Origin: Leptogorgia sarmentosa
Lineage: Eukaryota
Assembly (NCBI GenBank): GCA_964658305.1
Contig: OZ210885.1
Span: 5,766,001 to 5,830,000, forward strand
Reading direction: 5' to 3'
Length of the DNA: 64,000 nucleotides
Both the position numbers and the translations under genes were made by a program. Of the stretch, positions 37,321-63,820 are shown piece by piece. The notes beneath the pieces were generated by a model. It had not been told where the DNA came from. It was given only the letters and a program-made list of their open reading frames with translations, and did not search any database. How positions within the stretch are numbered: position 1 is the first letter of the stretch; the number at the start of each line of letters is the position of its first letter.

Positions 37321-37379
37321 TCACATGATTAACATGCATATAGCATAGTCATATAAAAAACATACTTCGAATTCAAATT

Positions 37380-39030: not shown

Positions 39031-39255
39031 GGTTAGAAGTTTTTAATACACAACTTACTGTAACTGAGCATCTGCGTAGAATGACGAAGCCACGAAAGTG
39101 ACAAAGAATTAAGTATTTGCATAATAGTCTTTGTTAAAGCTCGTAAATACTTGGGGCGGGTTTAAAATTGCCCTAAGAAGATTATGAACAGTCTAAACGT
39201 GTCTACATTAATTCAGTTTCTGTTAGCAGATGGCAAATTACTTTTGTAATTACTA

Positions 39256-39604
39256 CCCGTAAACATTGTATGAATTATAACTGTGATATTTCCCAAAACT
39301 CCAATGATCATTGCCAAGAATTTAAACACAACGGACGAAATAAGAAAATAATTTTGTACTTCGGGGAAATGCGACGAGTTATTCGCCATGGTTAGAAGTT
39401 TTTAATACACAACTTACTGTAACTGAGCATCTGCGTAGAATGACGAAGCCACGAAAGTGACAAAGAATTAAGTATTTGCATAATAGTCTTTGTTAAAGCT
39501 CGTAAATACTTGGGGCGGGTTTAAAATTGCCCTAAGAAGATTGTGAACAGTCTAAACGTGTCTACATTAATTCAGTTTCTGTTAGCAGATGGCAAATTAC
39601 TTTT
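39256..39604 (-). pseudogene. Tandem duplicate of the promoter and first ~45 codons of GPCR paralog 3
   Basis: Near-identical to 38897-39245 at period 359 bp; duplicated ATG at 39389. Confidence 0.88.
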
Positions 39605-41970
39605 CATTGTCTATTCGGCATTGTAACATAACAAATTTGGCGCTAATTGAATGACGGAAATTCTGTTTACTTCAGAAAGTGGCGTCAAAAGTTTCTGATA
39701 AATTGCCTAATCCCCAACATTTCTTTATTTTATGTCAAATTCCCTAAGGTCCGTTTGATATGATCAAATGCATGCTTACCCGGGAGAATGAAGCATTAAA
39801 TGATTTTGAAGTGCTGACATGTGCAGCTATAGTTTATAATTTGAAAAAACTTCTGGTTTCTCAAATTTCAATTTGTTCTACTTAATGAAATATATCTTTT
39901 TTGCTGCTTAGTAACTACAAGAAACTAACTTTCGTTCTTTCGTTTAATAAACATGTCTCTGCTCATTTCAATACGTCAAGATTACTTGACGCTTCATTAA
40001 ATCCCTGTAAGTAAGATCATATATATAAGCCCTAAATTGTGACACTTACGACCTTTCAATGATCGATCCACTAAAATTTAGGTGCGATCGAGATTAATAG
40101 TGTTCTCATTAATTATAAGAACAGCATGGAAGTATAATAATCATAAGAATACAATCAGGTTCATGTATGACTGACTGAGTGCCATTCTCCAAAGTTTTGT
40201 TCCAACATTCTCTATTTAGTTAGGACCCGTCCACACATATCCGGATATTTTTGAAAACGGAGGTTTTTTTCACCGAAAACGGAGTTTTCAAAAACGCTCT
40301 CCAGATTGGAAGCTTTCGAAAACGCCGTTTTCGTGTTTACGTGTGGACGGGCGAAAACGGAGGTTTTCGAAAACGATGACGTAAAATCAGGCCTGCGATC
40401 GCTTTGAACATCTCACATTACTGAGCAATGCGCATGCTCTACGCCGGGCGCTATCAAATTTCCTCCGTTTTGCCGTAAATAATCAAATAAGCGCATTAAA
40501 GTCCGTTTTACATTGTGGTCGCTTTGCCCGATATTTAATCTAAACCTTTACAAATTATTAAAAGTCTAAATCTCTCTGTATTTCATTTTATTAGTAAAAT
40601 ATCTTTAGAAACACACTAGTACTACATCATTCAAAGTACGAGATTCTTTACATTTATATTCATGTGATTGCATAATATAGAAACTAACGTTAAAATAAAT
40701 TTCAATTTTTACGTGCGTACACGTACGTATGGAAAACGCGTAACTGGAAAACAGCCTTAACGCTTCCTCGACGTGCCCGCGCGATTGATTTTTCATGAGA
40801 CTAAAATTACGCAGGGGACTGGTACGGAAATTGGCCTTTACATTCTCCTGGCCTATGGTGCCGCTTCCAAGAGCGACATGCTTTTATTTCAAAAGTTAGG
40901 AAATAGGTACATCGCCATTTATAATCCAGTGATCATGTTAACATAAAGGCCTGATTGCAGGGGCGATATTTCTTGGCGAATTGCGAAAATTTTCGCGCGA
41001 AATATTTGTTCGCATGCGTGATAAAGGCAAATAAGATTTCTCGAGAAAAATTTTCGCTTCGCCAGTGAGTAGAAGTCAGTTCTACTCACTGCGAAAGCGA
41101 AAAATGTGGGAGAATTCAATAGAATCATTCAATATACTATAATATCATTTTTATAAAATAAATTTCCCTAGGTTTTTCCAAACCAATGCACTCTAATACA
41201 CTTTACAAAAACTGACACTCATAATATAAACGTCTGTGTCCATTCTTTGTAAAACTAATCCTTTTTCTTTCAATATATTGCTTTGATTTATTCACTTAAT
41301 AATTAAATATTTAATTCACGTGTGCCTATTAACGCTGGTTTATGCGACAATAATTTGTACCAAAACAAATATTTAACTAACTGATGGACATTTAATGTCA
41401 CAGTATGATGATTTGTGACATTTGTCATCACACATACTCATATCTAATTTATATTTTATCACAAAAATATTCCTTCTTACAATATTATATCCGCGTGCAA
41501 GTTTACTTCCATAACATTGCAATATACACAGTCAGTGGCTTATTCCCAAATCAACGTCAACTCAAATTCGCAGGCCTCTTAAAAAATGAATATTGGAAAA
41601 GGACTCGAAATGAAAATCTAACTCACGTATATTTGGTCTCCTGTGATTATTTTTCTCTGAGAAGAGAATGTTACAAAGTTTATTGAGCTGGCAAAATAGA
41701 CTAAACAAAAACAGTAACATTCGGCAAAGTTAATTTGACTGCTTTTTATTGCTTCGCTGTTAAAGCAATTTCATTTCTGTTCAAATGGCTGACAATGAGT
41801 TACCTAGCAACCTCTTGACGTTTGCTGGACGATGTCCAACGAAATCTCTCTTACAACACTTGTTCGAGATTATCGTGATTTATTAGTCTACCTTCAAGAG
41901 CACTTGAGACAATTTCGAGAATAGATTACTTTTTGTAGTACAGTACAGCTAGTACCTATGTAAGATAATT

Positions 41971-42176
41971 AAACCCCTGCTGCACGAGCAATTTTTGTGT
42001 GACAATTTGCATGTGAAAAACTGACCATTCTTATTTACCCGTGTAGACGAGCAAAATTGGGAAATTTTTGAGGCAATTGGGGAAATACATTTTTTGAAAA
42101 TCTGGTGTGTCAGCTTTTAGCTATGTGACAAATAAAAATTGCCACATAAAATTTGGTCGTGTAAACGAGGCTTAAC
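41971..42176. mobile_element. Degenerate PIF/Harbinger-like MITE
   Basis: TTAAACCCCTGCTGCACGAGCAA ... TTGGTCGTGTAAACGAGGCTTAA imperfect inverted ends. Confidence 0.45.
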
Positions 42177-42543
42177 TTACAATATGCAATTGTGAAGCCA
42201 GCCCGACAATTTAGTGATGCCGTGCAAATTAAATCTGAGATCATTATCATATTTCATTTCTTTAGAACCTGATTCTTGTGGACACAGAAATATTTGCATA
42301 GCATCATCAAATTGTCACTGCTCAGACTTGCTTATTTGGAAAGAAAGGTTGAAATTGCGAATGTCATGCACCTGCATGTGTGATGTGTTTGAGTACTTAA
42401 CACAGTAAACGTTGGAAAAACGGGAATGAGTGCAGGTTCCGTTTAAGCGATAAATCTGTATCGTCTGTTTATCTTTTTCACCGTTCGTGTATTAAAATTA
42501 TTCTTAACATTTTCAAGGATTCTTTAGAATAAAATATATCACA

Positions 42544-43494
42544 ATGGCAAATAACTCGACATATCAGTTCTCTACAATACCAAGCGAGTTTCTTATTTCG
42601 TCCGTTGTATTCAAATTCTTCGCAATGATTATTGGAGTTTTGGGAAATATCACAATTATAATTCATACGCTTTCTACGAGAAAAGAAAAGACAGCGACAT
42701 CTTACTTGATTAGAAACCTGGCACTGGCAGATCTTCTCGTGTGTTTAACATTTTATCCAATATGGATCGTTGAATTTATACAGACTTTATTAAACATCAA
42801 TAGTGATCAGGACTTGTTTTGTAAGTTAAGTCGCTCCAGCATTAAAGCATTACTGTTCGCTTCAGTAGCCACACTTCTCGCAATTACTGTTGATCGCTGT
42901 ATTTATATTGTAAAACCTCTCAGATATCCGCTGATTGTGACCAAACGACGAGTTTTAGTAGCTATGTCAGGTATTTGGTTGATTGCCTGTTGTGTTTTTG
43001 CTGTTCTAATGGTAAGCATAAGAACATTTAAGGAAACTTTAAGAAATATTTGTTACATTGATGATACCCTGGGTTACTGCAGGGAGACGATTTTTCTCTA
43101 TTTTCCACTGACTTTAATAGTAATTCTGAATGTTTGGATTTTAATTGTTGCGGAGAAACAACGTAAACGCATCTGGGCTGAAACAGCAAACAACAGGAGG
43201 GACGCTAATCGATTTTTTCACGCTCTTAAAGCAGTTAAAACATTTAGTATCGTTGTTGCAGTGCTGACTTTCTGTGTTTTAACACCAACAGTGGTTGGGA
43301 CAATGCTACCTAACATTTCGTCATGTAGTGAATCATGCCAACGGTTGTGGTTCGCAGTTTTTAACTATGAGTTTTATGGAATAAACTCCATTGTGAACGC
43401 TTTCATCTATGGAATGAGACATATCGAATACAGAAAAGCTCCTGGACAGATCCTTCATAGCATACTTCGATGCAAGAAACACACCAACAAATAA
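42544..43494 (+). CDS. Intronless class A GPCR, paralog 4 of DRC cluster (316 aa), inverted relative to the other three
   Basis: Same motifs GN, NLALAD, DRC, FCVLTP, NSIVNAFIY. Confidence 0.93.
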   Translation: MANNSTYQFSTIPSEFLISSVVFKFFAMIIGVLGNITIIIHTLSTRKEKTATSYLIRNLALADLLVCLTFYPIWIVEFIQTLLNINSDQDLFCKLSRSSIKALLFASVATLLAITVDRCIYIVKPLRYPLIVTKRRVLVAMSGIWLIACCVFAVLMVSIRTFKETLRNICYIDDTLGYCRETIFLYFPLTLIVILNVWILIVAEKQRKRIWAETANNRRDANRFFHALKAVKTFSIVVAVLTFCVLTPTVVGTMLPNISSCSESCQRLWFAVFNYEFYGINSIVNAFIYGMRHIEYRKAPGQILHSILRCKKHTNK

Positions 43495-44871: not shown

Positions 44872-44944
44872 GCCTCATTAGCTCAGGGGTTCGAGCACTG
44901 GTCTTGTAAACCAGGGCTTCAGAGTTCAAATCTCTGATGAGGTT
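44872..44944 (+). tRNA. tRNA-Thr(TGT), several substitutions
   Basis: GCCTCAT/ATGAGGT acceptor, CTGGT-CTTGTAA-ACCAG anticodon arm, CAGAG-TTCAAAT-CTCTG T arm. Confidence 0.7.
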
Positions 44945-45101
44945 TTATTTTCTTCGAAAACTTTGAATAACTTGGACGACAAACGCCTAGATTGTATTCC
45001 ATGTGCTGTTCAGTGAGTTAAACTGATGAAATAAAAAAGCTATTGGAAGAGTACTACGTTGCAAAAAAAACATGCTAGAGCTAGGAAGATTTTAGCATGT
45101 C

Positions 45102-45173
45102 GCCTCATTAGCTCAGTGGTTAGAGCACTGGTCTTGTAAACCAGGGTTCAGAGTTCAAATCTCTGATGAGGCT
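45102..45173 (+). tRNA. tRNA-Thr(TGT)
   Basis: Full cloverleaf, 1-nt shorter variable loop, followed by T-run terminator. Confidence 0.85.
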
Positions 45174-45312
45174 TTATTTTCTTTGGAAACTTTGAAGAGC
45201 GTGGAACACAAACGCCCACAGTGTCTTCAATGTGCTGTTCAGTGAGTTAAAAAGTTAAAAGTGATGAAATAAAAACGGTATTAATGAAAGTGTACTACGT
45301 TGAAAAAAACAT

Positions 45313-45350
45313 GTAACCAAGGGTCCAGAGTTCAATTCTCTGTTGAGGCT
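45313..45350 (+). pseudogene. 3' half fragment of tRNA-Thr
   Basis: AGGGTCCAGAGTTCAATTCTCTGTTGAGGCT without 5' half. Confidence 0.75.
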
Positions 45351-45449
45351 TTAATTTCTACGAAAACTGTGAAGAACGTGGAAAACACGAACATATGTGC
45401 TCTTCAATGAGTTAAAACTGATGAAATAAAAAAGGCATTTAAGCAGGTT

Positions 45450-45522
45450 GCCTCTTTAGCTCAGTGGTTAGAGCACTGGTTTTGTAAACCAGGGGTCCAG
45501 AGTTCAATTCTCTGATGAGGCT
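45450..45522 (+). tRNA. tRNA-Thr(TGT), one acceptor-stem mismatch
   Basis: GCCTCTT/ATGAGGC; loop TTTGTAA. Confidence 0.75.
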
Positions 45523-45717
45523 TAATTTTCTTCGAAAACTTTGAGACTTGACTTGAGTAATTCAATCAGACTAAATTGTAAAGTTTTGCAAAAAAAGAAA
45601 ACAAGTGGGTAACCTTCTCTGTTATTTTTATCATTTTGATACATGGCATTAGTGTACGATCGCAAAGCAATATAGTTCTACAGCTAGCTTATCAAAGCAA
45701 CATCACATTACGTAGAC

Positions 45718-45790
45718 GCCTCATTAGCTCAGGGGATAGAGCACTGGTTTCGTAAACCAGGGGTCCAGAGTTCAATTCTCTGACTGGGCT
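45718..45790 (+). tRNA. tRNA-Thr(CGT) variant, probably pseudogene
   Basis: Loop TT-CGT-AA; two acceptor-stem mismatches (3' strand ACTGGGC). Confidence 0.6.
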
Positions 45791-46020
45791 TTGTGAAAAG
45801 TATTCATCGGCTTCGTTATTCGTTACAAGTTGTAACAAATAATGATGTTGATGATTTTATAAGGTATCAAGTTAACTCTCGTCATTGTCTGAAAAGTGTG
45901 ACCTGAAACAAAATTTTTGAAGTGAATTTATTTCATGAAAGACACGTGATAATTCGGGAAATCAAGTTTAATTAACTTCGTAATTGGATTTATATTCTGA
46001 GTTTCAATGCAGAAGAAGTA

Positions 46021-46105
46021 GCCTCATTAGCTCAGGGGTTAGAGCACTGGTCTAGTAAAACAGCTAGGAAACCAGGGGTCCAGAGTTCAATTCTCTGATG
46101 GGGCT
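46021..46105 (+). tRNA. tRNA-Thr(AGT) variant with 12-nt insert 3' of anticodon
   Basis: CTGGT-CT-AGT-A[AAACAGCTAGGA]A-ACCAG; other arms pair normally. Confidence 0.6.
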
Positions 46106-46293
46106 TTGTGAATAAGTATTCATTGTGAATATAAGAATTCATCCATTTCCTTTTTCGTAATTGGTTACAAGGAATGCAGTTAACTGTCCAGATTGTATGA
46201 GAAGTGTGACCTGAAGTGATCATGAGTTTATTTCATGAAAACACGTGATAATATGGTAAATTAGTAATTCTGAGTTTCAATAGGGAAGAAGTT

Positions 46294-46366
46294 GCCTCAT
46301 TAGCTCAGTGGTTAGAGCACTGGTCTTGTAAACCAGAGGTCCAGAGTTCAAATCTCTGATGAGGCT
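46294..46366 (+). tRNA. tRNA-Thr(TGT), intact
   Basis: 73 nt, all stems pair, TTTATTTT downstream. Confidence 0.92.
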
Positions 46367-46500
46367 TTATTTTCTTTGAAGAACGTGGAGGACGGACGAC
46401 CCGGCCGGTGTTAAAAGGGTGTTAAAAGTGATGAAATTAAAACGGTATTGGAAGAGTACTACGTTCGAAAACACATATGCTTGGAAGATTTTGGAGAGGT

Positions 46501-46586
46501 GCCTCATTAGCTCAGTGGTTAGAGGTTAGAGCACTGGTCTTGGTCTTGTAAACCAGAGGTCTAGAGTTCAAATCTCTGATGAGGCT
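46501..46586 (+). pseudogene. tRNA-Thr(TGT) pseudogene with two micro-duplications
   Basis: GGTTAGA and TGGTCT each duplicated in tandem. Confidence 0.8.
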
Positions 46587-46792
46587 GGTCGAATAAGTGT
46601 TCTTCCATTTCCTTCTTAGCAATTTGTTCTTAAAATATTGCAGAAATTAAACATCATGCATCGTGATTGTACGACAAATGTGGCCTCAAACCGTTTTTTT
46701 GAGAAAGCTGATTTCCTGGAAAACGTCTTGATCATACGGGAAATTAATCTCATAGTTACATTTATATTCTGAGTTTTATTCGTAATGAAGTT

Positions 46793-46864
46793 GCCTCACT
46801 AGCTCAGGGGTAGGGAACTGGTCTAGTAAACCAGGAGTCCAGAGTTCAATTCTCTGATGGGGCT
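46793..46864 (+). pseudogene. Degenerate tRNA-Thr(AGT)
   Basis: Loop CT-AGT-AA; D stem and acceptor stem mismatches. Confidence 0.7.
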
Positions 46865-47127
46865 TAAAAGTATCGTTATCAAAAATCGACCTGTTAGTTT
46901 TGTGAATCGGAAATAACTTTGTTGAAAGTGGAACTCAGAGTTCCGCTCACTTGTCATATATTCGTTATTATAATTCAATCAGACTAAATGGTAAATTTTT
47001 ACAAAAAAAGAAAGCAAGTGCATGACATTCTCTGTTATTTTTATCATTTTGATACATGGCATTAGTGTACGATCGCAAGGCAATATAGTTCTACAGCAAG
47101 CTTATCAAAGCAACATCTCGTTGCAAC

Positions 47128-47202
47128 GCCTCATTAGCTCAGGGGTTGGAGCACTGGTCTTGTAAACCAGGGGTGTCCAGAGTTCAAATCTCTGATGGGG
47201 TT
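47128..47202 (+). tRNA. tRNA-Thr(TGT) variant with 2-nt variable-loop insertion, possibly pseudogene
   Basis: GGGGTGTCCAGAG; weakened acceptor stem. Confidence 0.6.
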
Positions 47203-47400
47203 CAAAAATGTCGCCATCAAAAATTGACCTGTTAGTAATTAGATTGCTAAATAATTTTAAAAGTGGAACTCAGAGTCCCGCTCACTTGTAATATTTCGGT
47301 ACTGCAATTCAATCAAAGACTAAGGCCTGATGATCTGAAATAAAAAAGCTATTGAAAGAGGACTACGTTAAAAAAAATGCTAGGAAGATTTAAGCAGGTC

Positions 47401-47473
47401 GCCTCATTAGCTCAGTGGTTAGAGCACTGGTCTTGTAAACCAGGGGTACAGAGTTCAATTCTCTGATGGGGCT
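47401..47473 (+). tRNA. tRNA-Thr(TGT)
   Basis: 73 nt cloverleaf, GCCTCAT/ATGGGGC. Confidence 0.87.
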
Positions 47474-47729
47474 CAAAAGTATCGTTATGAGAATAGTGAA
47501 TAATTTTTAGAGTGTAACTCAGAGTTTCTCTTACTTGTAATATATTCGTTATTAATTGATAATAATTCAATAAAAAACTAAATGGTAACGTTTTACAATT
47601 AAAGAAAACAAAACAAGTGCATATTCTTCTCTTTTGATTTTACCATTTTGAAACATGGCATTAGTGCAGGATGGGAAAATAACATAATTCTACATGATGC
47701 TTTTAGGAGCAAAATCACATTGCATAGAC

Positions 47730-47814
47730 GCCTCATTAGCTCAGGGGTTAGAGCACTGGTCTAGTAAATTGTCTAGTAAACCAGGGGTCCAGAGTTCAAA
47801 TCTCTGATGAGGCT
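47730..47814 (+). tRNA. tRNA-Thr(AGT) variant with 12-nt insert 3' of anticodon
   Basis: CTGGT-CT-AGT-A[AATTGTCTAGTA]A-ACCAG; perfect acceptor stem; T-run downstream. Confidence 0.62.
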
Positions 47815-50366: not shown

Positions 50367-50878
50367 AAAACTGAAATTCCATGCCGCCCAGCAGTTGACA
50401 AAGATGAACTCAACAAATACTTTCTCCACTGTCCAGAAGGTTGTGACAGCAGCAGCAGACATTTGATGCAGAAAATACGTCTGATTGTCACAGAGCTTAA
50501 CGTGTCGAAAAGATTTGGAGATCACGTGCTATGGTAATCATATTCATTTGTGTTTCTGGTCAGGTTCTCGCGGAAACAACATTATTGTTCAAGTAGTCAA
50601 CGGAAAAACACACATAACAACGTGAAAAGAGTCAGTCATGCAGGGATTTAACAACGTGAAAAGAGTCGGTAATGCAGGGATTTCGTCAGAGGTAATTGGA
50701 GTCAATTATTGGGTACGCTCCTCTCCATCTGGGAAAGCTAACGACAGCGCTGGGATCAGGTAATCCAAAATTATCTATCGCAGGTGGAGTTCTTACTTTA
50801 ACTGGCGAAGTCTTTAGCCAATATGAACGTGATCGAAAAGAGTTGGAAACCAATAAATTATACCGTATAACTCAATAA
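50367..50878 (+). pseudogene. Cys/His-core family copy A (frameshift, stop, internal duplication)
   Basis: After TTTTAG: KTEIPCRPAVDKDELNKYFLHCPEGCDSSSRHLMQKIRLIVTE, frameshift near 50500, then CRKDLEITCYGNHIHLCFWSGSRGNNIIVQV..*; ~34-nt tandem duplication at 50615-50682. Confidence 0.8.
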
Positions 50879-51244
50879 ACATTTCCTAATCGAGACTACA
50901 AATCACGTACGACTATGTGAAGGGACAGTGCAGTGTAGTATAGACACAAAACCAATAGTGTAAAAACCTTTTGAGTATTTTTTTAGATGATGGGAGTCTT
51001 TTGTATATTTTCTTGCTTCGGTGGCAACTCTTGAAGTTTCTTCCGACTTTGTGTCTGTCCCTCCCCCGGAACAATCCAGAGATGCTTTGCGGGTTGTTTC
51101 GTAATGATGGTTAATTAGATTGACAAATTATATTGAAATCCACGACTAGCTGACAATCTGATAATCAATCAATCATATAAATTGACACTGTTCAATTGAT
51201 AAAAATATTAAAACTAAAAATACTAAAACAATTAGATTACTCGC

Positions 51245-51320
51245 TCTCGATTTCTACGAGATGACAGTTGATTCGGGCTTCGCCCTCATCAACTATCACC
51301 TCATAGAAATCTCGAGCTCG
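51245..51320. repeat. Core of palindromic dispersed repeat (~51226-51337)
   Basis: CTCGATTTCTA.GAG.TGA.AGTTGAT..GGGCTTCGCCC..ATCAACTATCACCTCATAGAAAT..CGAG. Confidence 0.7.
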
Positions 51321-51785
51321 TAATCTCATTGTTAAATAGACAACTCGGCCTCGTTGTCTAATTGTTAAATATCTAATAATTATAATACAACGCTATACTT
51401 CCCCTATTTGCTATAAGTGAAATTTAATCATGTAAGAAATGGCTTTTCTGCATTCTGAATGGTTAACTGAGCAATAGTTACTGCCTGGACTAGATCAAGC
51501 AGTAGCCATTGCTCTTTTCAACATGGCTGCTAAAATTTACTGATTTTTACTTTATCGCCAATGAAATTATACCAAAACAATTAGTTACTCCAGTCTCGCC
51601 GCTACATGCAGGGTTCGGTAAAGTTTCATCGATAATCACAGAGACTTCAGGAACTAATTGTTAATTAGCCCTTCTTGCTACAATATCATGCATACAATTT
51701 AATTATAGCTCGGCTTCATAAATAGATATAAACATAGATACAGATGACAATGACTTTCTCGGTATTCTTCAAGATGCAAAGAATC

Positions 51786-51810
51786 GAAAGCGAAAGAAAT
51801 GGAAGTTTCG
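51786..51810 (+). promoter_or_regulatory. IRF-like + degenerate kB motif of an orphan family 5' region
   Basis: GAAAGCGAAA followed by GGAAGTTTCG; downstream 51810-52080 aligns with the 5' regions of copies C/D/G but the ATG exon is decayed. Confidence 0.5.
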
Positions 51811-52264
51811 AAGCTTTAGAATGTTCTAACAGCAGGGTATTGATTACTTTAACGCTTCTTCGGTGCTATACCAAAACTACATTATGGTTCGCTTTGTTAT
51901 GCAAAAATCAAAAAGATAACTGAAAAGGAATTCAACGTTTCCAAAACAACAGAGGTTCTAGACACATAGTGTTGATTTGTATCTTTACGTTTACAGTGTA
52001 TTAAGAGAACGGACGACACGATTTATATTGTTTACTTTCCTTTGACTTTTTTATATCTCTAAAAATAATTCTGCTGCATGATGAAAACATTCAAGTCCCT
52101 TAGTTACAAATTCGTCATAATATATCATATATAGGCCTAGTTTGTAGAAGAGGAGTGAATATCAGTGATACCATTAAAATCACAGTGCAACGCGCTACGA
52201 ATTACCAACAAGAGAACACAACGCTTTTTCCAATTCTTGGTATTAAATATTAAATAATAAATAC

Positions 52265-52296
52265 GAAGCGAAAGCAAAACTACGAATGGAATTTCC
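52265..52296 (+). promoter_or_regulatory. IRF-like + kB motif upstream of copy B
   Basis: GAAGCGAAAGCAAAACT then GGAATTTCC (52288-52296). Confidence 0.5.
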
Positions 52297-52567
52297 GGGA
52301 ATTAGGCATGCATGACCAGCATAAGCCTTTTCTGAAATAGCGAGCACGATGCCTTGTGGTCTGGCTTCAGTACAAACAACTCCATGTAAGGCATAATGAA
52401 TAAACAATTTAGTATTGAAGCTAGATCACAATGCATGCAACATGTTCTTTATTGTTCAATTTCGACTGTTGTAGCGTCACAGTCATTTTCCAGCCGCTTT
52501 TCTCATACAGCCAGAAGCAATAATTGGCCAACGATCTCTGTTGTGAATCTCTACGTATTCATGCAGT

Positions 52568-53306
52568 ATGGCTAGTGAACTGGCATTACAGGTAATACAT
52601 TCTTACCTACTTATTTTGTTTGTGAAAAAAAATCGTGAGTGAGAATTTTAGGTATACTCGAGACAATAATTTTATTGTTTCAATATTTTGGTTAAAATGT
52701 TACCATACGTTATAGAAATTTTATCTTGTTTTACAAGTAAAAATAAGTTAGAGACATGTAATCAGATGCTATATAAACATCTAGCTAAATAAATCAGGAA
52801 CGAAGCAAATAAGATAACTCAACAATTGTGTCATCACAGGAACTGGAACAGAACGTACAAGAGATATAATGTGACCAAGAAATACGCCATGAAGATATAA
52901 ACAAATACTGTGATCACTGCACGGATGAAGACTGTGACATCTGTAGACGTTTGATCCAGGAGGCAGGTAAGATCATTGCAAGGTGCCAAGGACCCCAGAA
53001 TCATGTCGAAGGAATTTACAGATTATGTGCTATGGCAAGCATTTCGCACTGCGCTTCTGGTCAGGTTCTCCAGGAAATAAAATTGTGTTCCAGGTGAATG
53101 AAGATGAATTATTCGTAATGGTTGAGGAAAGAACTTGCCCAGAGTCAACCAGATACTTTTTGAGGCAGCAATTGGCACGATTTTCTTCTTGGAGTAGTGC
53201 ACTTCTTTTCCCCGAACAAGTTGCTCCTACTTTCTCACCCGAAGAAACAGCCACTTTCGTCAATGGATTTTACAACTTAAAGACTGGCTGGATATATAGA
53301 CTTTAA
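52568..53306 (+). pseudogene. Cys/His-core family copy B (in-frame stop and frameshift)
   Basis: Exon 52568-52591 MASELALQ|GTAATA; exon from 52840 ELEQNVQEI*CDQEIRHEDINKYCDHCTDEDCDICRRLIQEA (TAA 52867-52869), 8-nt insertion near 52984 shifts frame to PESCRRNLQIMCYGKHFALRFWSG..NGFYNLKTGWIYRL*. Confidence 0.8.
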
Positions 53307-54889
53307 CATGGCTTGAAAACTCGATGTACATATCATATTAAATTTTCATAATCATATCTTACTTGATATAATATTTTACAAAGCATGAATTGGACTTTCT
53401 GAAAATGAAACACAGGTCAAAGCCATTAAATGGAACTTCCTGAATAAACATTTTCAAAATTTCAATGTGTATTAATCGGTACAATCGCGAAATATCGCAC
53501 TGCCTTTTCTAGTTTAAATGACTTATTTAGTTGTTGGCAAGCTGTGAGATTTTACGTCAGGGAAAACCGCATGCTGATCCAGTTAATTCACTGACTGGAA
53601 TCTTTAATTTTCATTGAAATGATACCGTCAGAAAATACATTCGTCGTCTGTTTATAATAAGTTAACGTTACCTTCAGCGTTGGAAATTGAACGCCATTGC
53701 ATTAACTAAGGAAACAAAGAATCGAAACTAAAACTACGAGTCAAAGAACGAGGATAGCGCCCAGAAGCTGACATTATCCGTTTACCCCCAACTACATGGG
53801 CGCGAACGTATGTCAGTTTTCCCTTAAATTATGTCAAAGGAAAAAATCCAAAATTAGGTTTTTATGCCATATACAGCTAGAAAACATTAATTGGCCAACG
53901 ATCTGTTGTGAATCTCTACGCATTGATGCAGTATGGTTAATGAATTGGTAATTCTAATTCTCCTTGTTTCGTTTTCATATTTTGGAGCGACTGTTATAGA
54001 CATAGTTATTTAAGAGAAAAATATAGTAGCTTTCATGCATGCGTGCTCCGAATAGGCATCAATACAACCCTGGGAAAGGGAATATATATTGTTGAATATC
54101 CCGAGAGAATTTATATATCGAGAATTTCTGATGATTTTGCATAGGATGAATAACGACTGTCGCTGTTTTCCGTCATTCTTTCATTCTAATAGTGTGGATT
54201 TTTCCCTTTCATAATCACTGTTTGCAAATTGTTGGAGTTCGAAATCTGTATAATCTCGTGTGAGAGGGCCTCAAATGCTATTGCAACTTTCCTGGACAGT
54301 AGACGTTACGGTACTTTGCCCTTGTTATCTCAAAAGTGAAAATTATTTACACTAAATATAGTTTCTAAGTCATTATTTGAAGGAAATGGACAAAGATATA
54401 ACTAGAGGATTATACTAACACCATGCATTATATTCTATTCCTACCAAGTACGATTGTTGTCGAACATGCAGAATATATTGCATGTATTGTTTCAGTTTTA
54501 TGTATTGGTATTGCTATATATTTGATATAGCGAGATGACTACATGCTGGTCTAGGATATTGTTATTCTGCCACATTGGCTTTATCAAATACCACGTATGC
54601 ATCAAAACTATGTAAAAGCTATAGCTATATCTAATGAATATAATGTACAGTTGTTGAGTTTCTTAAATTCATTAAAATTCAAGGAGCCAAAACGAAAGGA
54701 ATGGAATTCATGGAGTCTAAAAATGCTCTGACAGCAGGGTATTGATTGCTTCAATGCTTCTTGTGTTCTGTGCAAAAAACGACATTAGTTTGCCTTGTCA
54801 TGCAAAACATCAAAAGCTAGGAAACCGCATTCCAAGGTGTCGAAAACAACCAAGGTCTTCATTTTGACTTGTGTCTTTAAATTTACAGT

Positions 54890-56019
54890 ATGGCAAGCGA
54901 ACAGACAGGAAAGGTAATTTATATTGTTACTTTTTACTTGCTTTCTTATCTGTAAAAATAGTGCTGCTCGTAGGAACGCACTGACATTAGAATGAAATTT
55001 CTCACAATTAAAAACTTCAAAATATGGCCAGTATATAGGTAGCGGAGCTTAGCGGATATAACAACATGCATAAACAAGCAGGAAAAGTCCTACTCGCCAC
55101 CTAAACGATACAATGAGATTCGACGTTTCAAGCGAATGAGCGACGTCGGGAATTAGTGTGGCAAAGTCCTTTGCTCGTAACGTCGAATCTTATTGTATCG
55201 TTTAGGTGAACGGGTAGAAACATGTTCAAGTCATGAAGTTGACATCATAATTATATCACAATAAAGGATAAAGGATATTTAAAGGATAAAGCTATACTTG
55301 AACAACATTTTGTCGACAAGATGTACGAGTAACAATCGTGAATGAATCACGATGGATTAGTGCTGTATATTATATCAGTTGATTAGTCCTGTATATTATA
55401 ATTTATTAAGTATATATGTATATGTACTTACTTGTATAATACATATATATGTGTGGTTCATACATAATTTTAATTGCAGATGTTAAAACATCTGTAATAC
55501 AATTTCTCGAAAGATATATGTAATGCACTTTTGTGCATGTTTTGTTGTTGTTAGGAAAATAAAATTGAAGAAATCGATTGTAATCCAGCAGTAACCAATG
55601 AAGATATAAACAAATGCCTGGATCAGTGCTCGCAAAAATGCGGAAATTGCAAAAGTGTGATGGAAAAAGCGCGATTCACTGTTACAAGACGCAAAGAATC
55701 ATATCGCAAGAATTTGGAGATAACTTGTCTTGGTGATCATATTTCCTTGTGTTTCTTGTCTGGTTCGCGGGAAAATCAGCTTCTAGTTCAAATGGGTAAT
55801 GACGGGCAGGCTCATGTAGAGATAATTCGAGAGCGTGACTGCTGTAAATGCATGTGTGTTTGCCTAAAAAGAATGTTTGATTGCATTAAATGCTGCTTAA
55901 ACCTCATCTGTGAGTGCTTCAAATGGTGCTTTACACGTATGTGTTGCTGCTGTAAATGTTGCAGAGATGAACAGGGTGAAAACGAGCCGTTAGTGAGACA
56001 GACTGAGGGAACTGACTAG
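54890..56019 (+). CDS. Cys/His-core family copy C, 162 aa, cysteine-string tail
   Basis: Exon 54890-54913 MASEQTGK|GTAATT; exon 55555-56019 ENKIEEIDCNPAVTNEDINKCLDQCSQKCGNCKSVMEKAR..EITCLGDHISLCFLSGSR..CCKCMCVC..MCCCCKCC..ENEPLV..*; phase-0 intron. Confidence 0.85.
55095..55212. repeat. Palindromic element in intron of copy C
   Basis: CACCTAAACGATACAATGAGATTCGACGTT / AACGTCGAATCTTATTGTATCGTTTAGGTG. Confidence 0.8.
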
Positions 56020-56949
56020 TTTTCATTTTTCTGTTACTTTTGCTATCAAAAATATAAAAAGTCCGTGTTTTGTATTTCGCAAGTGAATAATAACAATTCA
56101 TCATGCTGACTGCAGGCTCAAACTAACTTCTTATTCTTTGTATTACATTGTATCGAAATATTAAAATCCTCACTTATACCATTAACATTTTCTGTCTGTT
56201 TAGATTAATAGCGAGGGGGTATTTTTCAGTTAATAAGAAAGTATAGGCTATAAAATAAAAAGACAGACCGTTTCAATAAATATATATTCCGGCAAGGACA
56301 GGAATCTATCTAATTTACAGCCGACATTTTCATCTCTCCTGTTCAAATACCAACATGAAATGTAACAAAGTAATCTCAATGTTTTGAAAACTTAAGCAAA
56401 TTGAATGTTTTGATACATTTCAGTAAGGAACATACATGACCATGGATTGGCAATGTATTTTCTTCTGTGTTGTTTTTAGCATACAGTATGTGGAGGATAA
56501 CACGGATTTTAGATGGGCTTTGAAAGCAAACTAAAACCATACCGCACTAACTTATGAGTGAATGCTGGAGGGTAATGCAATTACGCAAAACACAAAAATA
56601 TAGCAAAAAATTTTTTGACAATTATAGTTTTAAAACTTACGAGTTACAAAGAAAGAGCGACAAATTGGAATTTTTCCAGGTAGCTATATAGATTCATTCA
56701 CATAAACCACAACATATTTTACACATATTTTATGAAAATCAAATTATACTGAAAGTATACTAAATTTATCGCGCGAGGTGAATATTCACCTAGAATCATG
56801 AGAGAGGTAAATGATTGTTAGCTAAATATCCTTTTATATAATTTGACACCGGTACTAGTGTTATTAATTTCCCCACCCTAACATCGCTCCACATCGTGCG
56901 ATTCAACAAAAAATTTCTTTGCCCGCAATTTCATCGATGAATGATTTGA

Positions 56950-56979
56950 GAAATCGAAAGAGAAATAAATGGAATTTCC
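56950..56979 (+). promoter_or_regulatory. IRF/ISRE-like + kB composite upstream of copy D
   Basis: GAAATCGAAAGAGAAA (three GAAA at 6-nt period) then GGAATTTCC (56971-56979). Confidence 0.6.
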
Positions 56980-57152
56980 GGAGCTCTAAAAAAGCTTAAC
57001 AGCAGGATATTGATTGCTTGTGTCCTAGCTGTGAAGAAAATAACATTATAGTTTGCCTTGTTATGCAGAAATCAAAAGGAAACTGTAATTTTAGGTTTGG
57101 ACAACAACACTGGTGTTTCAGTTTTCTATATTTTTATCTGTATGTTTACAGT

Positions 57153-58077
57153 ATGGCAAGCAAACAGCCAGAAGAGGTAATTATTATACAATTGCTGATT
57201 TCTTCTAGTTGCTACTCAGAATTGTGTACTCACTTGTTCCCAGTGCAGTGGGAACTTCTAAATGTTGTCGAATCTTTACAATTCACCGCATTAATGATGT
57301 GTCACTCTGAAGGCTGTTACAATTGGTATCATGATGTGTTATATAACTTTGCAGCAATGAATAGCATGAATGCATGAAGCTAACACGAATTTTGAAAAAG
57401 TATTTCTGCATAGATATATATATAGGCCCAACACCGCATGCATTTTGAAACACAACAACGTGAACCAAACTATAGTAAACTATAGCATTCCAGTAAGTGC
57501 GGTTCTTGTTGAAATACCTTTCAGATCCGTAAATTTTCTCTGTGTTTTGTAGGAAAGTGAAACACAACAAATCAATTGTAATCCAGCAGTAACCCATGAA
57601 GATATAAACAAATACATGGACTTCTGCTCTGACAAATGCGAAAATTGCAAACGTGTGATGCAAAAGGCGCGTTCAATTGTAGCAGAAAAAGAAAAATCGC
57701 TCCGTAAAAGCCTCGAGATTACGTGCAGGGGTGAACACATTTCCTTGTGTTTCTGGTCTGGTTCACGGAGTATAAAAGTTGTGGTTCAGATGGGTAGTGA
57801 CGGGAACGCTCACGCAGAGGAAACTGAAAGGATTCGGTGGTGTAAGCGGTGCAAGTCTGACTGCTGTGGATGCTGCAAGTCTGACTGCTGTGGATGCTGC
57901 AAGTCTGACTGCTGTGGATGCTGCAAGTCTGACTGCTGTGGATACTGCAAGTCTGACTGCTGTGGATGCTGCAAATGCAAATGTTGTTGTGGGTGCCTGA
58001 ATGGCATTATGCGTTTTTTAAGCCAGCGAAAGAATACACGAACGAACGAGGGTGGGCAGCTAGTAACATCGGAATAG
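57153..58077 (+). CDS. Cys/His-core family copy D, 182 aa, (CKSDCCGC)n tail
   Basis: Exon 57153-57176 MASKQPEE|GTAATT; exon 57553-58077 ESETQQINCNPAVTHEDINKYMDFCSDKCENCKRVMQKAR..EITCRGEHISLCFWSGSR.. Confidence 0.87.
57850..57974 (+). repeat. Coding 24-bp tandem repeat x5 (TGCAAGTCTGACTGCTGTGGATGC)
   Basis: Five near-perfect copies, one TGC>TAC change. Confidence 0.95.
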
Positions 58078-59066
58078 TTTGGTTAACTTACTACATCACT
58101 CTGGGATAAATAAAACACTTTAAACGAACTTTAACCAGAATTAATAACCTTTACTAGTTGAGGGTTTCTGCTGTCCCTGTATCAACTTCAATATTGCTTT
58201 TAAGAGTGAAAGTATGCACTTACTGTAAATCTGCTCCTATTTTAGAAGTTAGTTATAGGTCTTCAAGATGACAATTTGTAGTCTTAATTTCAAAATTCGT
58301 TGGCTAAGAGCACACGACATAACTTGACTTAGCGCAAAATATATAGCCTAATTGCCCGATGAACTGTTTTTAGTAGCTACTAATTAGATTTAATGAAGCG
58401 ATAGCGAACGAAAAGCTCTTGCAGGAGGGTGCCTTCATTGCTCTGTGTGTTTACATGATTTTCCTTTATGTGCAAATTTAAAGGAGAGAGCGGGAGCTTC
58501 AAAATCAAGTGAAGGTCCTTGACATCCATCTGATGCCAAACATACTTTAAATAAAACGGTACAGTATAGCTAATATCATTTTTAACGTTTGGTGAATGGC
58601 ATGCGAGCAAGTAAGATGTTTTCGCACTGCTTGTTGTACGTTTAAATAACGACAAGCTGCGAAATTCTTCGCGGGTAGCTACATCACGCAAAAATTGTCT
58701 ATACACACGCTACATGTGCATCTATAAATATTCATTATACAAGTAATTAATTATATATTTCCTTTGTAAAAAACATGTAAAAACTTTGCGTGATGTTTAC
58801 GTTGGTGCATGTAGTTATTTTCTACATGTACAACATTCAAGTGAGAATTTAGTATGCGACAGACAATTAGGAGATTTCAAATCAGAGATTACGGTTCAAT
58901 ACTCGCATAGACTGACTAGGTAGGTTCTAAATTTCGGCAGGCGATATTGCATTAGAAGTCGTATATACAATAGCTTTTACGCAGGGAAGAGCCCGAGAAT
59001 GCTCCTAGTTTTTCAAGATGAAATTCGATAGCGATTTCTAATCCGAGCATCAAAATTCAGTGATTC

Positions 59067-59086
59067 GAAAGTGAAAGGAAATTTCG
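59067..59086 (+). promoter_or_regulatory. IRF/ISRE + kB-like composite of a decayed family 5' region upstream of copy E
   Basis: GAAAGTGAAA immediately followed by GGAAATTTCG; downstream aligns with C/D/G 5' regions. Confidence 0.55.
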
Positions 59087-59867
59087 GAGCTTTTCAGAAT
59101 GTTCTGACAGCAGGGCGTTGATTGCTTCATTGATTCTAACAGTTGCATTATTGCAAACTAAGACACGGCTTTCTTTGATGTTCCAAAAAAAACATTTCAA
59201 AAAACAACCAATTAAGGTTTCAGCGTCGATTTGTTTTTTAGGTTTACATTATGGTAAACAAACCTACAGTTTACGATATTGCTGATTTCTTTTAGTCTTA
59301 ATTTAACAAAACATCACAAACAAAGTTATTAACATCATCTTATATGCCCCACTATATATATACCTGCTTCAAATAGAAAGTGCAGAACTTACAGTAATAT
59401 ATCATTATGGTGAATTGCATGCGAGCAAAAAGATAATTTCGTACAGCTTTTTCCAGTTTAAACACAACGACTAATCTTAATTGTCTACACGCTATGAGAT
59501 TTTAGTTGGGAATTGCCACACGCTGATTTAATAATTTGCCGATTGTATCTTTAAATATCGCAATCATGCAATAAAATCGTCGTCAAATGAATGTGATACT
59601 ATTATTATGGCCAAGGTTTGTTCGCTCATAACCAACATTGCTGGGATTAAGAATATGTGCATGATAATCATGTTCTATAGAAGAACTGCGGTTTGTGCGG
59701 CAGCTGTAAATTCTCCCATCAGGTCGGCTAGGACTTGCTTTGCTTTTGTTATGTAAAATAGGAAAAAATCCAAACTAATAACTGATCAGTGACCATTTCG
59801 AAACCATTTCATGTGATGTAGCCAAAAGAAGCAGGTGTTCGGTTTTGTGAATCCCTACATGAACCTT

Positions 59868-60963
59868 ATGGCTGATGGAGAGGTACATAATACATAATAT
59901 ATATAGTGCTGTTTCCTCTTCTTTCTCTATGATATGCTGAATTTAACTGATATATGATAGGTATTTTCATGAATAACATTTCATTTAAGTAAGAATTTCG
60001 GTTACGACACACACAATATAGCTACAGTATAAATTATAATGATTTCAACATTTACCCACTTGCGTGAGAGATGCCTCTCAATTCCGTTTCATACTAGTAA
60101 TATAGATTCTATAGCTGTTAGGATAAATTTCGTGCAGGCGATCCTGAATAAACATTATGCACAGAAATCCAACAACAACATGTACGTTTGTTATGATACA
60201 TATGGTATACATTTTTCAACCGTTGAAGTATCTGAATGGCTGAAAGTATTTGGCATTAATAATCAAATTTAAAAATTAGCCAACGTTTACCATGTTGGTT
60301 ACTTAATTTTGCTCATATGACGACGCTAGATATAGCTACCTTGAATACCTTCAGTTGTCCTTGAAGCACGTAAATCACTAAACTTATGAGTTACCCATAA
60401 AGCATGCAATTGCATGGCATTTAACTTTACACAAACCTTGGAGAAAACCATTGTTGCAGTATTAACCTTCCACACTAATACTGAAATGGTTTAAAATGTT
60501 GCGTTTATAGAGACGCACTGTGGAAGAAATCGGATGTGGTCCAATGATAACCCATCAGAAAATAAACGACTACCGAGAGTATTGCCCAGGAAAATGCGAT
60601 AATTGCAAAAATGTTATGTTAAAGGCGCGTCAAATTGCCAGAGAGATATCAGAATCATGTCGGAAGAGTATGGAGATTACATGCAATGGTGATCATTTTA
60701 CCTTGCGTTTTTTGTGTGGTCTTCGGGGAAACCAAATTCTAGTTAGCAGCAACAACGGAAAAGTAGATGTAACGTTACGTAAACAAACATGGCGAGAGTG
60801 GTTTACACCGGGAGGTATCAGGAATACTATAAAAACAATACAACAGGTAACGTTCTCCATCATATTGGTTTTTGTCATGGCCAGAAATTGCGGATATGTA
60901 AGATTGCGCGTGCGCGAAATTTTTGGTATAAAATGGCGACAGATTCCCTATGTTTTTCTATGA
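59868..60963 (+). CDS. Cys/His-core family copy E, ~155 aa, hydrophobic/basic tail
   Basis: Probable exon 59868-59882 MADGE|GTACAT (in-frame ATG also at 59859); exon 60511-60963 RRTVEEIGCGPMITHQKINDYREYCPGKCDNCKNVMLKAR..EITCNGDHFTLRFLCG..VTFSIILVFVMA..*. Confidence 0.75.
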
Positions 60964-61539
60964 GAAAATTTAATAATTCATAATATATATTTTGACATGT
61001 AAATTATTTTGAATAATTGCTGAAATGAAAATAGTATCTTATAGTAAACAGCAACTATCTGGATAACATAAACTGGTGATAAGTATTAAACCCGCCCTGC
61101 TTTTTTAAAATAAATGCTCAAAGAATTACCTTACTTTGCTATGAAGAAACAGCAAGGGCCAAGGAAGAATCGCTCCATTCATTTTACTCAGACAACAATC
61201 GACGGTTGCCGAAATCATTTATTTTGAACGAGTGATTTCTGCCTATGTTCGGCAATTTAAGTTAAATTGGCAAGTAGTGATCTTCGAGATCACATGACGG
61301 TCCAGGGGCCGGGGTATTAAAGGCTTTTAGACTTCTCAACTTCCCATTGAGAAAATTAATTTTTATTGATATCTTAATTCCTCTTTGGGACATAACAAAA
61401 TACTTAGGATGACAAAATACTTATACCATAATTATATAGTCAGACACGAAATGAATCCCTCCTCCCTCATTCCTCATCCAAGACAGTCCAACAAGTAAAT
61501 CACTTTGTTGAACGCTACTTTTTTTGTTTGTATCTTCAG

Positions 61540-62328
61540 AGCAACAAAGTAAATGATGATCCGGTGCCTCAGGTAATTAATTCTATATTTTTTCCAAAGA
61601 TCGATCAGTGTCAATTGCATGCATATGTAAGAAAAACGTTTTATATATGCATATACTTGGACTTAAAACGTTCTTATACGATTCGTGTGTGAAATGTTTT
61701 CAACATTTTGGGATGTGGTACAACTGGTCTGAAAAAAGGAGTGTATACAGTGGAGGGGGTGGGAGTGGAGGGCGGTTTGAATCTACTAAATGAGATACAT
61801 ATAAAATTTGACTATTGATCGATTGCATTATTACAGGAACGCGAACGTAAAATAGAATATATTCTATGTGATCCAGTGGTACACCATGAAGATCTGAACC
61901 GATACTGTAATTCTTGTTTGGTTGAAGACTGTATAGTTTGCAGACATGTGATGCAAAAGGCACGTCTGATCGTCGCAGGGGCCCCAGAATCATGTCGAAA
62001 GAATTTCGAGATTACATGCTATGGTGAGCATATTTCATTCCGCTTCTGCTCTGGTTCTCGGGGAAATAAAATTGCCGTCTTAGTGTGTGAAGGTACAATA
62101 CATGTTGTTATAGAGGAAAGAACTTGGAAACAGGCGATGATAGACTTTTTTAAGCGTCAATGGCAACAATTTTTGGGTATTAAACTCATAGTTGCTCTGA
62201 GAGCAGCACTTACTGACCGTGAAGCAGCTGTCTCTTATCTGCCACTCGAACAAAATGCCTGTTTGGTCAGTGGATTTCACAACTTAAGGACAGGAAGCAT
62301 ATACACCTTAACTTTGCCTGAAAACTAA
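61540..62328 (+). CDS. Cys/His-core family copy F (start codon not located)
   Basis: Exon 61540-61572 SNKVNDDPVPQ|GTAATT; exon 61837-62328 ERERKIEYILCDPVVHHEDLNRYCNSCLVEDCIVCRHVMQKAR..EITCYGEHISFRFCSGSRGNKI..SGFHNLRTGSIYTL..*; closest to copy B. Confidence 0.75.
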
Positions 62329-63112
62329 TTCAATTTTCTTATCATATCTTATTAAATGTTCATACAATATTAACTTTCTTTAATGAAGCCATTGAAAGAA
62401 AGCTATGCTTTTGTCGTAGCTATATGTCGTCAAATGTCTATACTATAGCTATATATATTCTTTGCACGTGCAATATGTCTAGAGTTTCTGTATATATATA
62501 CATATATTGGTTTGCGAAATTCAAAAGTCAAAATACTAGTGCTCAATGACATATAGACAGAGCAAAATGTATAAACATATATTAATGAATAATAACGTCA
62601 ATGAAAAGAAACACATCACTTGTAATATCAATTTTGGTTGTAATTGAACACTAACTCACACCAAGATACCTAACAACTGAATATTGTTAGTTAAAATAGA
62701 AAAATACAGTGCCAAGTGTAAAGTGTCTTATATGTGAAATAGTACCCAGGCAGCTAGCGTGTGTAAAATCACAATTATATAATATATATTATATATATTT
62801 ACTACTATCTATCTACATCTATATATACAAAACGTATAACAATGTGCCCTCAATAATTTGTTTGGCAATGTAAAACGTACGAGTAATAAACTACGAGTTG
62901 CAAAGAAAGAGTGACAAATGGCAATTTCTAATCATGTTCATTCACACTTCATCATCATAAACAACAATGAACGTTTCTTCAACGTTTTAAATTTGGCTGT
63001 TTATATCGTGAATGTTCACGATTTCTCAAATTTAATACACTTTCTTCGCCATTCAGCCATCTAAGGCTTGTTGTTTTGATGAATTTACGATTATTTTAAA
63101 CATCGCGTATTT

Positions 63113-63132
63113 ACAAAGGAAATGGAATTTCC
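63113..63132 (+). promoter_or_regulatory. kB motif upstream of copy G (IRF part eroded)
   Basis: ACAAAGGAAAT-GGAATTTCC (63124-63132), same context as copy D. Confidence 0.5.
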
Positions 63133-63306
63133 GGAGCTCTAAAAAAGCTTAACAGCAGGGTACTGATAGCTTGTGCCCTGTGAAGAAAATGAAATTATAG
63201 TTTGCCTTGTTATGCAGAAATCAAAAGGAAACTGTAATTTAAGGTTTGGACAACAACACTGGTGGTACGTTTCAGTTTTCTATATTTTTATCTGTATCTT
63301 TACAGT

Positions 63307-63820
63307 ATGGCAAGCAAACAGTCAGAAGAGGTAATTATTATACAACTGCTGATTGAATTATTGTTGCTGTCGCTGTGTTCAAGTAGCTATATAAGTGCAT
63401 GTGGTTGTCGTCAAAACCACCACTTTATTTTATAGCCGAAAACTTTCTTTCATGTTTTGTTGTCAGGAAAGTGAAACACAACAAATCAATTGTAATCCAG
63501 CAGTAACCCATGAAGATATAAACAAATACGCGGACTTCTGCTCCGACAAATGCGAAAATTGCAAACGTGTGATGCAAAAGGCGCGTTTAACTGTAGCAGA
63601 AGCAAAAAAATCGCTCCGTAAAAGCCTCGAGATTACGTGCAGGGGTGAACACATTTCCTTGTGTTTCTGGTCTGGTTCACGCAGTAAAAAACTTGTGGTT
63701 CAGATGGATAGTGACGGGAACGCTCTTGTGGAGAAGAAAAAAAAGATCGGTCGCCGAAGACGGCCTCAATTAACAATAAATTGGCGAAAAAACAGACGAA
63801 AGCGCCATATTCGCCAATGA
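63307..63820 (+). CDS. Cys/His-core family copy G, 125 aa, polybasic tail
   Basis: Exon 63307-63330 MASKQSEE|GTAATT; exon 63467-63820 near-identical core to copy D, tail EKKKKIGRRRRPQLTINWRKNRRKRHIRQ*. Confidence 0.85.

Follow-up and report, generated by a model that had tools for sequence, protein, structure and literature searches.

A conserved promoter block with an ISRE-like repeat upstream of a tandem gene family in the octocoral Leptogorgia sarmentosa

Do genes of an octocoral carry the kind of promoter that drives interferon-stimulated genes (ISGs) in vertebrates? The question is raised by a 64,000-nucleotide stretch of the Leptogorgia sarmentosa genome (assembly GCA_964658305.1, contig OZ210885.1, positions 5,766,001 to 5,830,000, forward strand), called the window here, which is animal DNA of 36% GC. 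One gene lies there in seven tandem copies between 50.3 and 63.8 kb (tblastn), comprising two pseudogenes (g50, g52) and five open copies (g55, g57, g60, g61, g63). An earlier note had listed seven elements ahead of the family members, each read as an interferon regulatory factor (IRF) site paired with an NF-kB (kB) site. The first exons behind them are of two types, A (A51, A54, A56, A59, A63) and B (B52, B53, B59). The element forms the conserved 5' margin of a promoter block that the family members have in common, and by our estimate there is an even chance that its GAAANNGAAA repeat is an interferon-stimulated response element (ISRE) that would switch the genes on in innate immunity.

Conservation is considered first. 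The five type A promoters were aligned with one from a separate locus, L001 (six sequences, 15 pairs, or 10 pairs without A63). Homology among type A promoters begins at the IRF-like site. The upstream flank has a mean pairwise identity of 0.32; the value is 0.67 in the IRF-like block (0.82 without A63), 0.76 in the kB-like 9-mer (0.73 without A63), 0.48-0.52 in the next 125 nucleotides (nt; 57021-57145; 0.44-0.51 without A63), and 0.69 in coding exon 1 (0.65 without A63). The IRF-like block is conserved above its flanks, as the earlier note had proposed to check. GAAA positions are fixed and the 2-nt spacer is free (GC, AC, TC/GA, GT, AC), which is the pattern expected of GAAANNGAAA (PMC6954429). 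L001 holds a g55-like gene with 76% nucleotide identity and a proportion of synonymous differences (pS) of 0.50 to g55. Its best local scores against window introns and upstream DNA are merely 15-28. Because of this pS and the unalignable intron and intergenic DNA, L001 is taken to represent a related species. It retains GAAAACGAAA, which contains an exact GAAANNGAAA, 202 nt before an ATG, with GGAATTTTTG at the kB position. Two other loci, L002 and L003, gave 20-residue matches. At 80% likeness a further single-copy contig (runs X1 and X3, one sample) matches only 56952-56992, at 36 of 41 positions, and exon 1 (57135-57182), at 39 of 48, with 141 versus 142 letters between its two matches, where the intervening DNA may simply be less than 80% alike. 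We take it as an extra paralogue because each copy in the window is either more different from it or found on another contig. The 14-mer AATGGAATTTCCGG around the kB-like site occurs three times in the window (B52, A56, A63), so it is common to both types.

These results bear on two simpler explanations. Purine-rich chance strings could have been carried along with the duplicated unit: every copy is homologous, GAAANNGAAA with one mismatch is common (1.6 per kb per strand in positions 1-48000), and shuffling the upstream regions one by one yields an exact ISRE in 2-10% of cases. However, block identity is far above that of the flanks, the 5' untranslated region and synonymous sites, and the extra paralogue conserves the same island, which leaves this explanation largely refuted and very improbable. 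The element could also be a piece of some transposon or other dispersed repeat, given the high-copy repeat at 56631-56673 and 62888-62927 and its similarity to the AAACTACGAG end of B53 (p 0.003, in one of 18 pairs). Reads cover 56944-56991 to a depth of 185-222, where the baseline is 112, whereas the repeat reaches about 4000 (at 80% likeness). Because motif depth is only about twice baseline, the block is not a dispersed repeat, and we consider this origin extremely unlikely.

The family is also expressed. GT-AG joints occur at 52587>52836 (g52) and 54911>55553 (g55) in runs X4 and X5, and at 57174>57551 (g57) in X4; DNA run X1 has none of the three. Runs X4 and X5 are taken as RNA solely from the joints missing in X1, and contig depth ranks nothing. 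At least three gene copies are transcribed and spliced, because two runs show joints that the DNA run lacks. In all three genes with a joint, the 5' ends of the spliced contigs fall 115-128 nt downstream of the IRF-like site (at 57081 for g57). Exon 2 of g60 is covered in part in X5, and the main exon of g61 is covered in X4 and X5. The family genes are under purifying selection, with nonsynonymous to synonymous ratios (dN/dS) of 0.19-0.36 in five of six gene pairs; the recent pair g57/g63 stands at 0.72. The block lies upstream of spliced RNA, is conserved above its flanks and is single-copy; it is very probably a functional conserved promoter block. Pseudogene g52 (52840-53520) has an identical stop and frameshift in contigs from two samples, though it is spliced and transcribed.

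Site by site, the listed elements are more varied than a single composite (Table 1). All seven strings are present on the + strand at the positions first reported, and the distance of about 170-300 bp to the first-exon ATG agrees with the 174-303 nt found overall (184-303 nt from the ISRE-like start to the ATG or its remnant, 174-280 nt from GGAA). Five of the seven composites are complete; 53719 (B53) has no GGAA partner and 63124 (A63) no upstream IRF-like site. The description of the halves as IRF/ISRE and kB cores holds in part. Exact GAAANNGAAA is found in three elements (51786, 56950/56956, 59067), with a single mismatch at 54688, 52270 and 53724; the exact Rel-type 9-mer GGAATTTCC is also found in three (52288, 56971, 63124), preceded each time by T and never by G. 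One element has both, and the sole invariant is GGAA. In type B the pair is present at B52 but not at B53 or at B59 (B-type first exon at 59868, g60), which has no ISRE or kB motif within 300 nt of its ATG. Spacing from the IRF-like site to GGAA is 5, 5, 5, 0 (A59) and 8 (B52) nt in the window copies and 5 nt in L001. Two first exons have decayed, that of A51 near 51999 (ATG and donor lost) and that of A59 at 59251 (donor lost). B53 has an exact ISRE on the - strand at 53967-53976. The exact ISRE of A63 at 63185 sits where A56 has none, and may reflect site turnover or chance (4% in shuffles).

Table 1. Promoter elements and gene copies of the family (window coordinates).
Feature	Position	Strand	Description	Basis
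A51	51786..51850	+	type A block: exact ISRE GAAAGCGAAA, GGAAGTTTCG, ACAGCAGG at 51829	
B52	52265..52301	+	IRF-like half-sites, TGGAATTTCC, overlapping presumed GAS-type TTCCGGGAA (52293-52301)	
B53	53719..53735	+	IRF-like half-sites akin to B52, GGAA partner absent; ATG 53933 in a first-exon remnant	
A54	54688..54752	+	ISRE with one mismatch CAAAACGAAA, GGAATTCATG, ACAGCAGG at 54731	
A56	56950..57020	+	three GAAA half-sites at ISRE spacing, TGGAATTTCC, ACAGCAGG at 56999; best copy	
A59	59067..59127	+	exact ISRE GAAAGTGAAA directly joined to GGAAATTTCG; ACAGCAGG at 59107	
A63	63124..63194	+	TGGAATTTCC, no upstream ISRE; ACAGCAGG at 63152; separate exact ISRE at 63185	
g50	50370..50780	+	exon 2 pseudogene remnant: frameshift, stop; no first exon found	tblastn, three-frame reading
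g52	52402..53520	+	spliced, transcribed pseudogene; ATG 52568, donor 52591, exon 2 from 52840	
g52 lesions	stop at 52867, frameshift further on	+		three-frame reading
g55	54890..56019	+	exons 54890-54913, 55555-56019; 162 residues; Cys-rich tail	
g57	57153..58077	+	exons 57153-57176, 57553-58077; 182 residues; Cys-rich tail of 24-nt repeats	
g60	59868..60963	+	B-type first exon 59868-59882 (predicted splice); exon 60511-60963	
g61	61540..62328	+	predicted mini-exon 61540-61572, main exon 61837-62328; first exon not located	
g63	63307..63820	+	exons 63307-63330, 63467-63820; 125 residues; basic tail; core near-identical to g57	

Several arrangements around these sites are worth recording. First exons of both types are paired ahead of one second exon at 51786-52591, 53719-54913 and 59067-59882, and likewise in L001 (1885-2825), which suggests alternative first exons or promoters left over after exon loss. 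From the kB-like site on, g57 and g63 share 92% identity (56963-57200 versus 63116-63354; dS 0.08), and they are hardly alignable just upstream of that site and in mid-intron; this suggests a gene-conversion tract starting at the motif. At 53401-53440, in the 3' untranslated region of g52 and about 500 nt ahead of the B53 ATG, an exact ISRE GAAAATGAAAC, which the earlier note did not list, is followed 21 nt on by GGAACTTCC.

Motif counts in the window were compared with chance. A search for GAAANNGAAA-N0-16-GGAA-N1-2-TT gives 4 matches, at 3 sites, where 0.04 would be expected, and the pattern was seen in 0 of 100 shuffles, but this count alone proves little because the sites are homologous and the pattern was drawn up after the fact. 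There are 4 matches of GGAATTTCC against 0.69 expected, and 17 of GAAANNGAAA against 7.55, 12 of the 17 in the family region. None of the five G protein-coupled receptor (GPCR) genes in the window has either motif in the 1 kb upstream of its approximate ATG.

Which factors might bind can be judged separately for each half. The 10-mer consensus of NF-kB is GGGRNWYYCC, and p50 prefers GGG ends. TGGAAT/GGAA also fits, in our assumption, the TEAD, NFAT5 and Ets consensus, and TTCCGGGAA at B52 is presumably a STAT site of the gamma-activated sequence (GAS) type by its consensus. None of the listed kB-like sites has a GGG 5' half-site or matches the 10-mer, and all three exact 9-mers read TGGAATTTCC. 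The kB half decays to GGAATTCATG (A54), GGAATTTTTG (L001) and GGAAGTTTCG (A51), and the 3' TTCC half is lost in four of seven GGAA-bearing promoters, L001 included. GAAANNGAAA is described as the canonical ISRE (PMC6954429), and the GAAA-contact residues of IRFs are reported as kept in invertebrates (PMC7819612; bioRxiv 2021.05.13.443009). The GAAA repeat is probably bound by an IRF. Whether it makes the genes immune-inducible we would put at evens, and NF-kB is a doubtful partner at the GGAA core. The pairing of IRF and kB sites as in immune-inducible promoters is supported on the IRF side, where the site is apparently promoter-proximal and is more conserved than its flanks and a distant homologue of the protein carries a CARD, and the kB half is weak.

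In a special case of our reading, IRF and NF-kB would sit next to each other and act cooperatively, on the model of the interferon-beta enhancer. Exact GGAATTTCC in B52, A56 and A63 and the 5-nt spacing in four of six composites would suit it. We take GTGGAATTTCC to be the kB site of the IL8 promoter. This string is present in the human IL8 promoter (PMC4638192), and the amphioxus gsdme promoter is reported to have functional IRF1/RelA cross-binding sites (PMC10155998). However, GGG half-sites are absent from the listed sites, the TTCC losses recur, and spacing is 0 nt in A59 and 8 nt in B52. NF-kB of Aiptasia and Nematostella is described as resembling p50 in its binding and differing from RelA and c-Rel (PMC5700166; PMC13042239), and putative antiviral genes of Nematostella are reported as NF-kB-independent (bioRxiv 2021.05.13.443009). 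Cooperation of this kind is unlikely, and because spacing varies (0, 5, 8 nt) the element is not an interferon-beta-like enhanceosome. Two other strings, GGGAATTGCC and GGGAAAACCG (59508-59517, 53560-53569), lie in a segment conserved between the B59 and B53 upstream regions (p 0.003); they begin with GGG and would hence suit a p50-type kB protein better than the sites of the earlier note do. They were not evident in L001. A heat-shock element at A51 and A59 was rejected by eye, as its GAAnnTTC units are out of phase.

The earlier note had overlooked ACAGCAGG, which all five type A copies and L001 carry, with no other occurrence in the window, and whose reverse complement CCTGCTG is given as the ZIC2/3 consensus (bioRxiv 2025.06.20.660819; PMC9080556). 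A real but non-inducible promoter could use it, with basal or cell-type expression through Zic at ACAGCAGG, Ets, TEAD or NFAT5 at TGGAAT, or a constitutive IRF. Transcripts in two RNA-like runs whose treatment is not known would agree with this, as would the basal IRF1-driven expression that has been described (PMC7819612). Fixed GAAA with free spacers is unexplained in such a promoter unless an IRF is involved, and both the CARD fusion and the tandem turnover suggest an immune role. We regard a non-inducible promoter as a lesser possibility.

Against an immune ISRE stand several observations. The ACAGCAGG..GCTT segment is as conserved (mean pairwise identity 0.83-0.84) and is not an immune motif. 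Four of the 12 exact ISREs of the family region lie inside coding exons, so the motif arises easily on a purine-rich strand. Copies without the sites persist as well: the genes behind A63, which has no upstream site, and B59, which has neither motif, are intact, with partial coverage in the RNA-like runs. Local alignments of type A with type B hit the motif on both sides in five of 18 pairs, and the best p, 0.007 uncorrected, does not survive correction for the 18 pairs. Contig 5' ends cannot show a transcription start site. Just one of 19 homologues scanned has a CARD. In mouse cells, less than 1% of canonical ISREs were reported as IRF3-bound (PMC6954429), and single IRF or STAT knockdowns in Nematostella, as described, left cGAMP-induced genes unreduced (bioRxiv 2021.05.13.443009).

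What the genes encode also bears on the question. They share a domain of about 95 residues, and the window genes are single-domain and without CARD. Word-index protein searches gave 1 and 4 hits, whereas a profile search with the window core against 1.84 billion proteins returned 70 hits at E<=0.001; about three of these look spurious (P0186, P0187, P0189) and two match the window's own g61 and g60 (P0001, P0123). Of the 20 hits looked up, those with a name belong to Dendronephthya, Paramuricea, Branchiostoma and Ptychodera. One amphioxus homologue combines a CARD (Pfam E 2e-15) with two domain copies (E 1.2e-18; hhalign 96.8%), two amphioxus alignment members carry an additional zinc ribbon, and three Ptychodera (hemichordate) proteins are arrays of the domain. 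Pfam had no match to the domain at its curated cut-off in 65 alignment members, and the best E in a PDB sequence search was 0.91. A first structure model was poor (predicted local distance difference test, pLDDT, 52; best Z 5.2). A second, of g61 from the 65-sequence alignment, reached pLDDT 87 and a predicted template-modelling score of 0.80, with a helical hairpin, a beta-sheet and a C-terminal helix (five strands, four helices). With it, Foldseek returned no hits at E<=0.001 in PDB and BFVD, and the best VIA match among 48,161 chains had Z 4.2 (root-mean-square deviation 3.0, 76 aligned), which is no proof of a new fold. The ESM Atlas gave a weak YgjP-like match (0.77) and no usable hit.

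Tails are amphipathic or hydrophobic in many homologues, contain 28-32% Cys in g55 and g57, and are basic in g63; hydrophobic moment was >=0.45 in 38 of 63 tails, by a threshold of our own choosing and without a control. Separate Cys-rich tandem repeats occur in the tails of g57 (57850-57974, 24-nt unit) and the L001 gene (1130-1310), and such tails are possibly lipidated or metal-binding. An interferon-like cytokine has a signal peptide and an all-helical fold. The N-termini of g55 and g57 are polar and not signal-peptide-like. As modelled, the products are not interferon-like and not secreted cytokines; they are predicted to be intracellular alpha/beta proteins of small size whose tails vary, being amphipathic, Cys-rich or basic, and such tails would make them likely ISG-like effectors or adaptors associated with membranes. 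An innate-immune effector or adaptor would be in keeping with the pseudogenes, the tandem turnover, the patchy distribution and the CARD fusion.

If the element is an ISRE, an IRF dimer would bind the GAAA half-sites, two or three in number, which lie about 115-130 nt ahead of where the RNA is first seen, and a second factor would bind the GGAA core 0-8 nt downstream; NF-kB is one candidate, and Ets, NFAT5, TEAD or (at B52) STAT fit equally. The ACAGCAGG block may contribute cell-type input, and the genes would be ISG-like effectors under an IRF-driven promoter. More tentatively, this could be an undescribed ancient family of IRF-induced innate-immune effectors, possibly with a new alpha/beta fold and a membrane-binding tail, present in octocorals, amphioxus (CARD-fused) and hemichordates.

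Other features of the window include 11 tRNA-Thr genes or pseudogenes in an array with four different anticodons (44872-47814) and five intronless rhodopsin-family GPCR open reading frames (23920-43491). Four of the latter are close paralogues, one of them inverted, and one GPCR has named relatives from Paramuricea and Dendronephthya (four named among 120 matches listed). Repeated exons on the - strand at 2389-14456 resemble, by eye, sushi/CCP and lectin-type domains and are possibly a complement-like gene. High-copy dispersed repeat fragments also lie at 51221-51373 and 55098-55208, the latter with inverted ends.

The regulatory idea is already known in kind, because cnidarian motif enrichment, an IRF antiviral programme and an amphioxus IRF/RelA promoter have been published; what is added here is an octocoral footprint at the level of single sites, together with a protein family that has no name. 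Our literature search, in which protein accessions were not searched by name, found no paper on an octocoral ISRE or this gene family. Promoters of Nematostella genes induced by poly(I:C) are reported as enriched for STAT, IRF, NF-kB and ETS motifs (PMC8476169), and a cnidarian antiviral programme with IRFs has been described (PMC13319465). For cnidarian IRFs as putative antiviral drivers, single knockdowns in Nematostella were reported as ineffective and the motif evidence is bulk enrichment. The poly(I:C) promoter study is a bulk motif scan in a hexacoral, whereas here single sites are footprinted from sequence across octocoral paralogues; its secreted NVE23912 is unlike the window family in the alignment rows seen (PMC8476169). 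Natural variants (intact A56, ISRE-less A63, kB-decayed A54, motif-less B59) make the IRF question testable in a soft coral. If the reading is true, an IRF-plus-partner promoter with site turnover among paralogues would be direct cis-regulatory evidence of octocoral IRF-to-effector wiring without interferon, and the unnamed domain common with amphioxus is a candidate immune effector.

The interferon-beta enhancer has a PRDI/III-PRDII layout with adjacent IRF and kB sites at fixed spacing, and in the enhanceosome an ATF-2/c-Jun site adjoins. The element resembles it in having an IRF-like repeat directly 5' of a GGAA..TTCC-like site on the same strand, but it has no GGG half-site, a spacing of 0-8 nt, kB decay and a non-cytokine target, so that the likeness is analogy and not homology. 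In amphioxus, gsdme is likewise an invertebrate effector gene with IRF1/RelA-type sites; these were tested by reporter and pull-down, and its protein is unrelated to the window family (PMC10155998). Relatives of the domain itself are uncharacterised proteins of Dendronephthya (XP_028412960), Paramuricea (CAB3999520), Branchiostoma (XP_035677330) and Ptychodera (XP_070553409), whose database labels describe no function. Branchiostoma floridae XP_002606760 is a CARD-domain protein with the same domain, and the Ptychodera proteins are long tandem arrays, in contrast to the CARD-less, single-domain window genes. Another close counterpart is the ISRE of vertebrate ISGs (PMC6954429), with a like consensus, a tripartite form at A56, an apparently promoter-proximal position and an NFKB- or GAS-type neighbour; here the exact type A copies lack the 3' C/CT flank, the host has no known interferon and binding is putative. 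By this comparison the block likely works like an ISRE-containing ISG promoter, outside the interferon-beta enhanceosome class, in front of genes that are not interferons.

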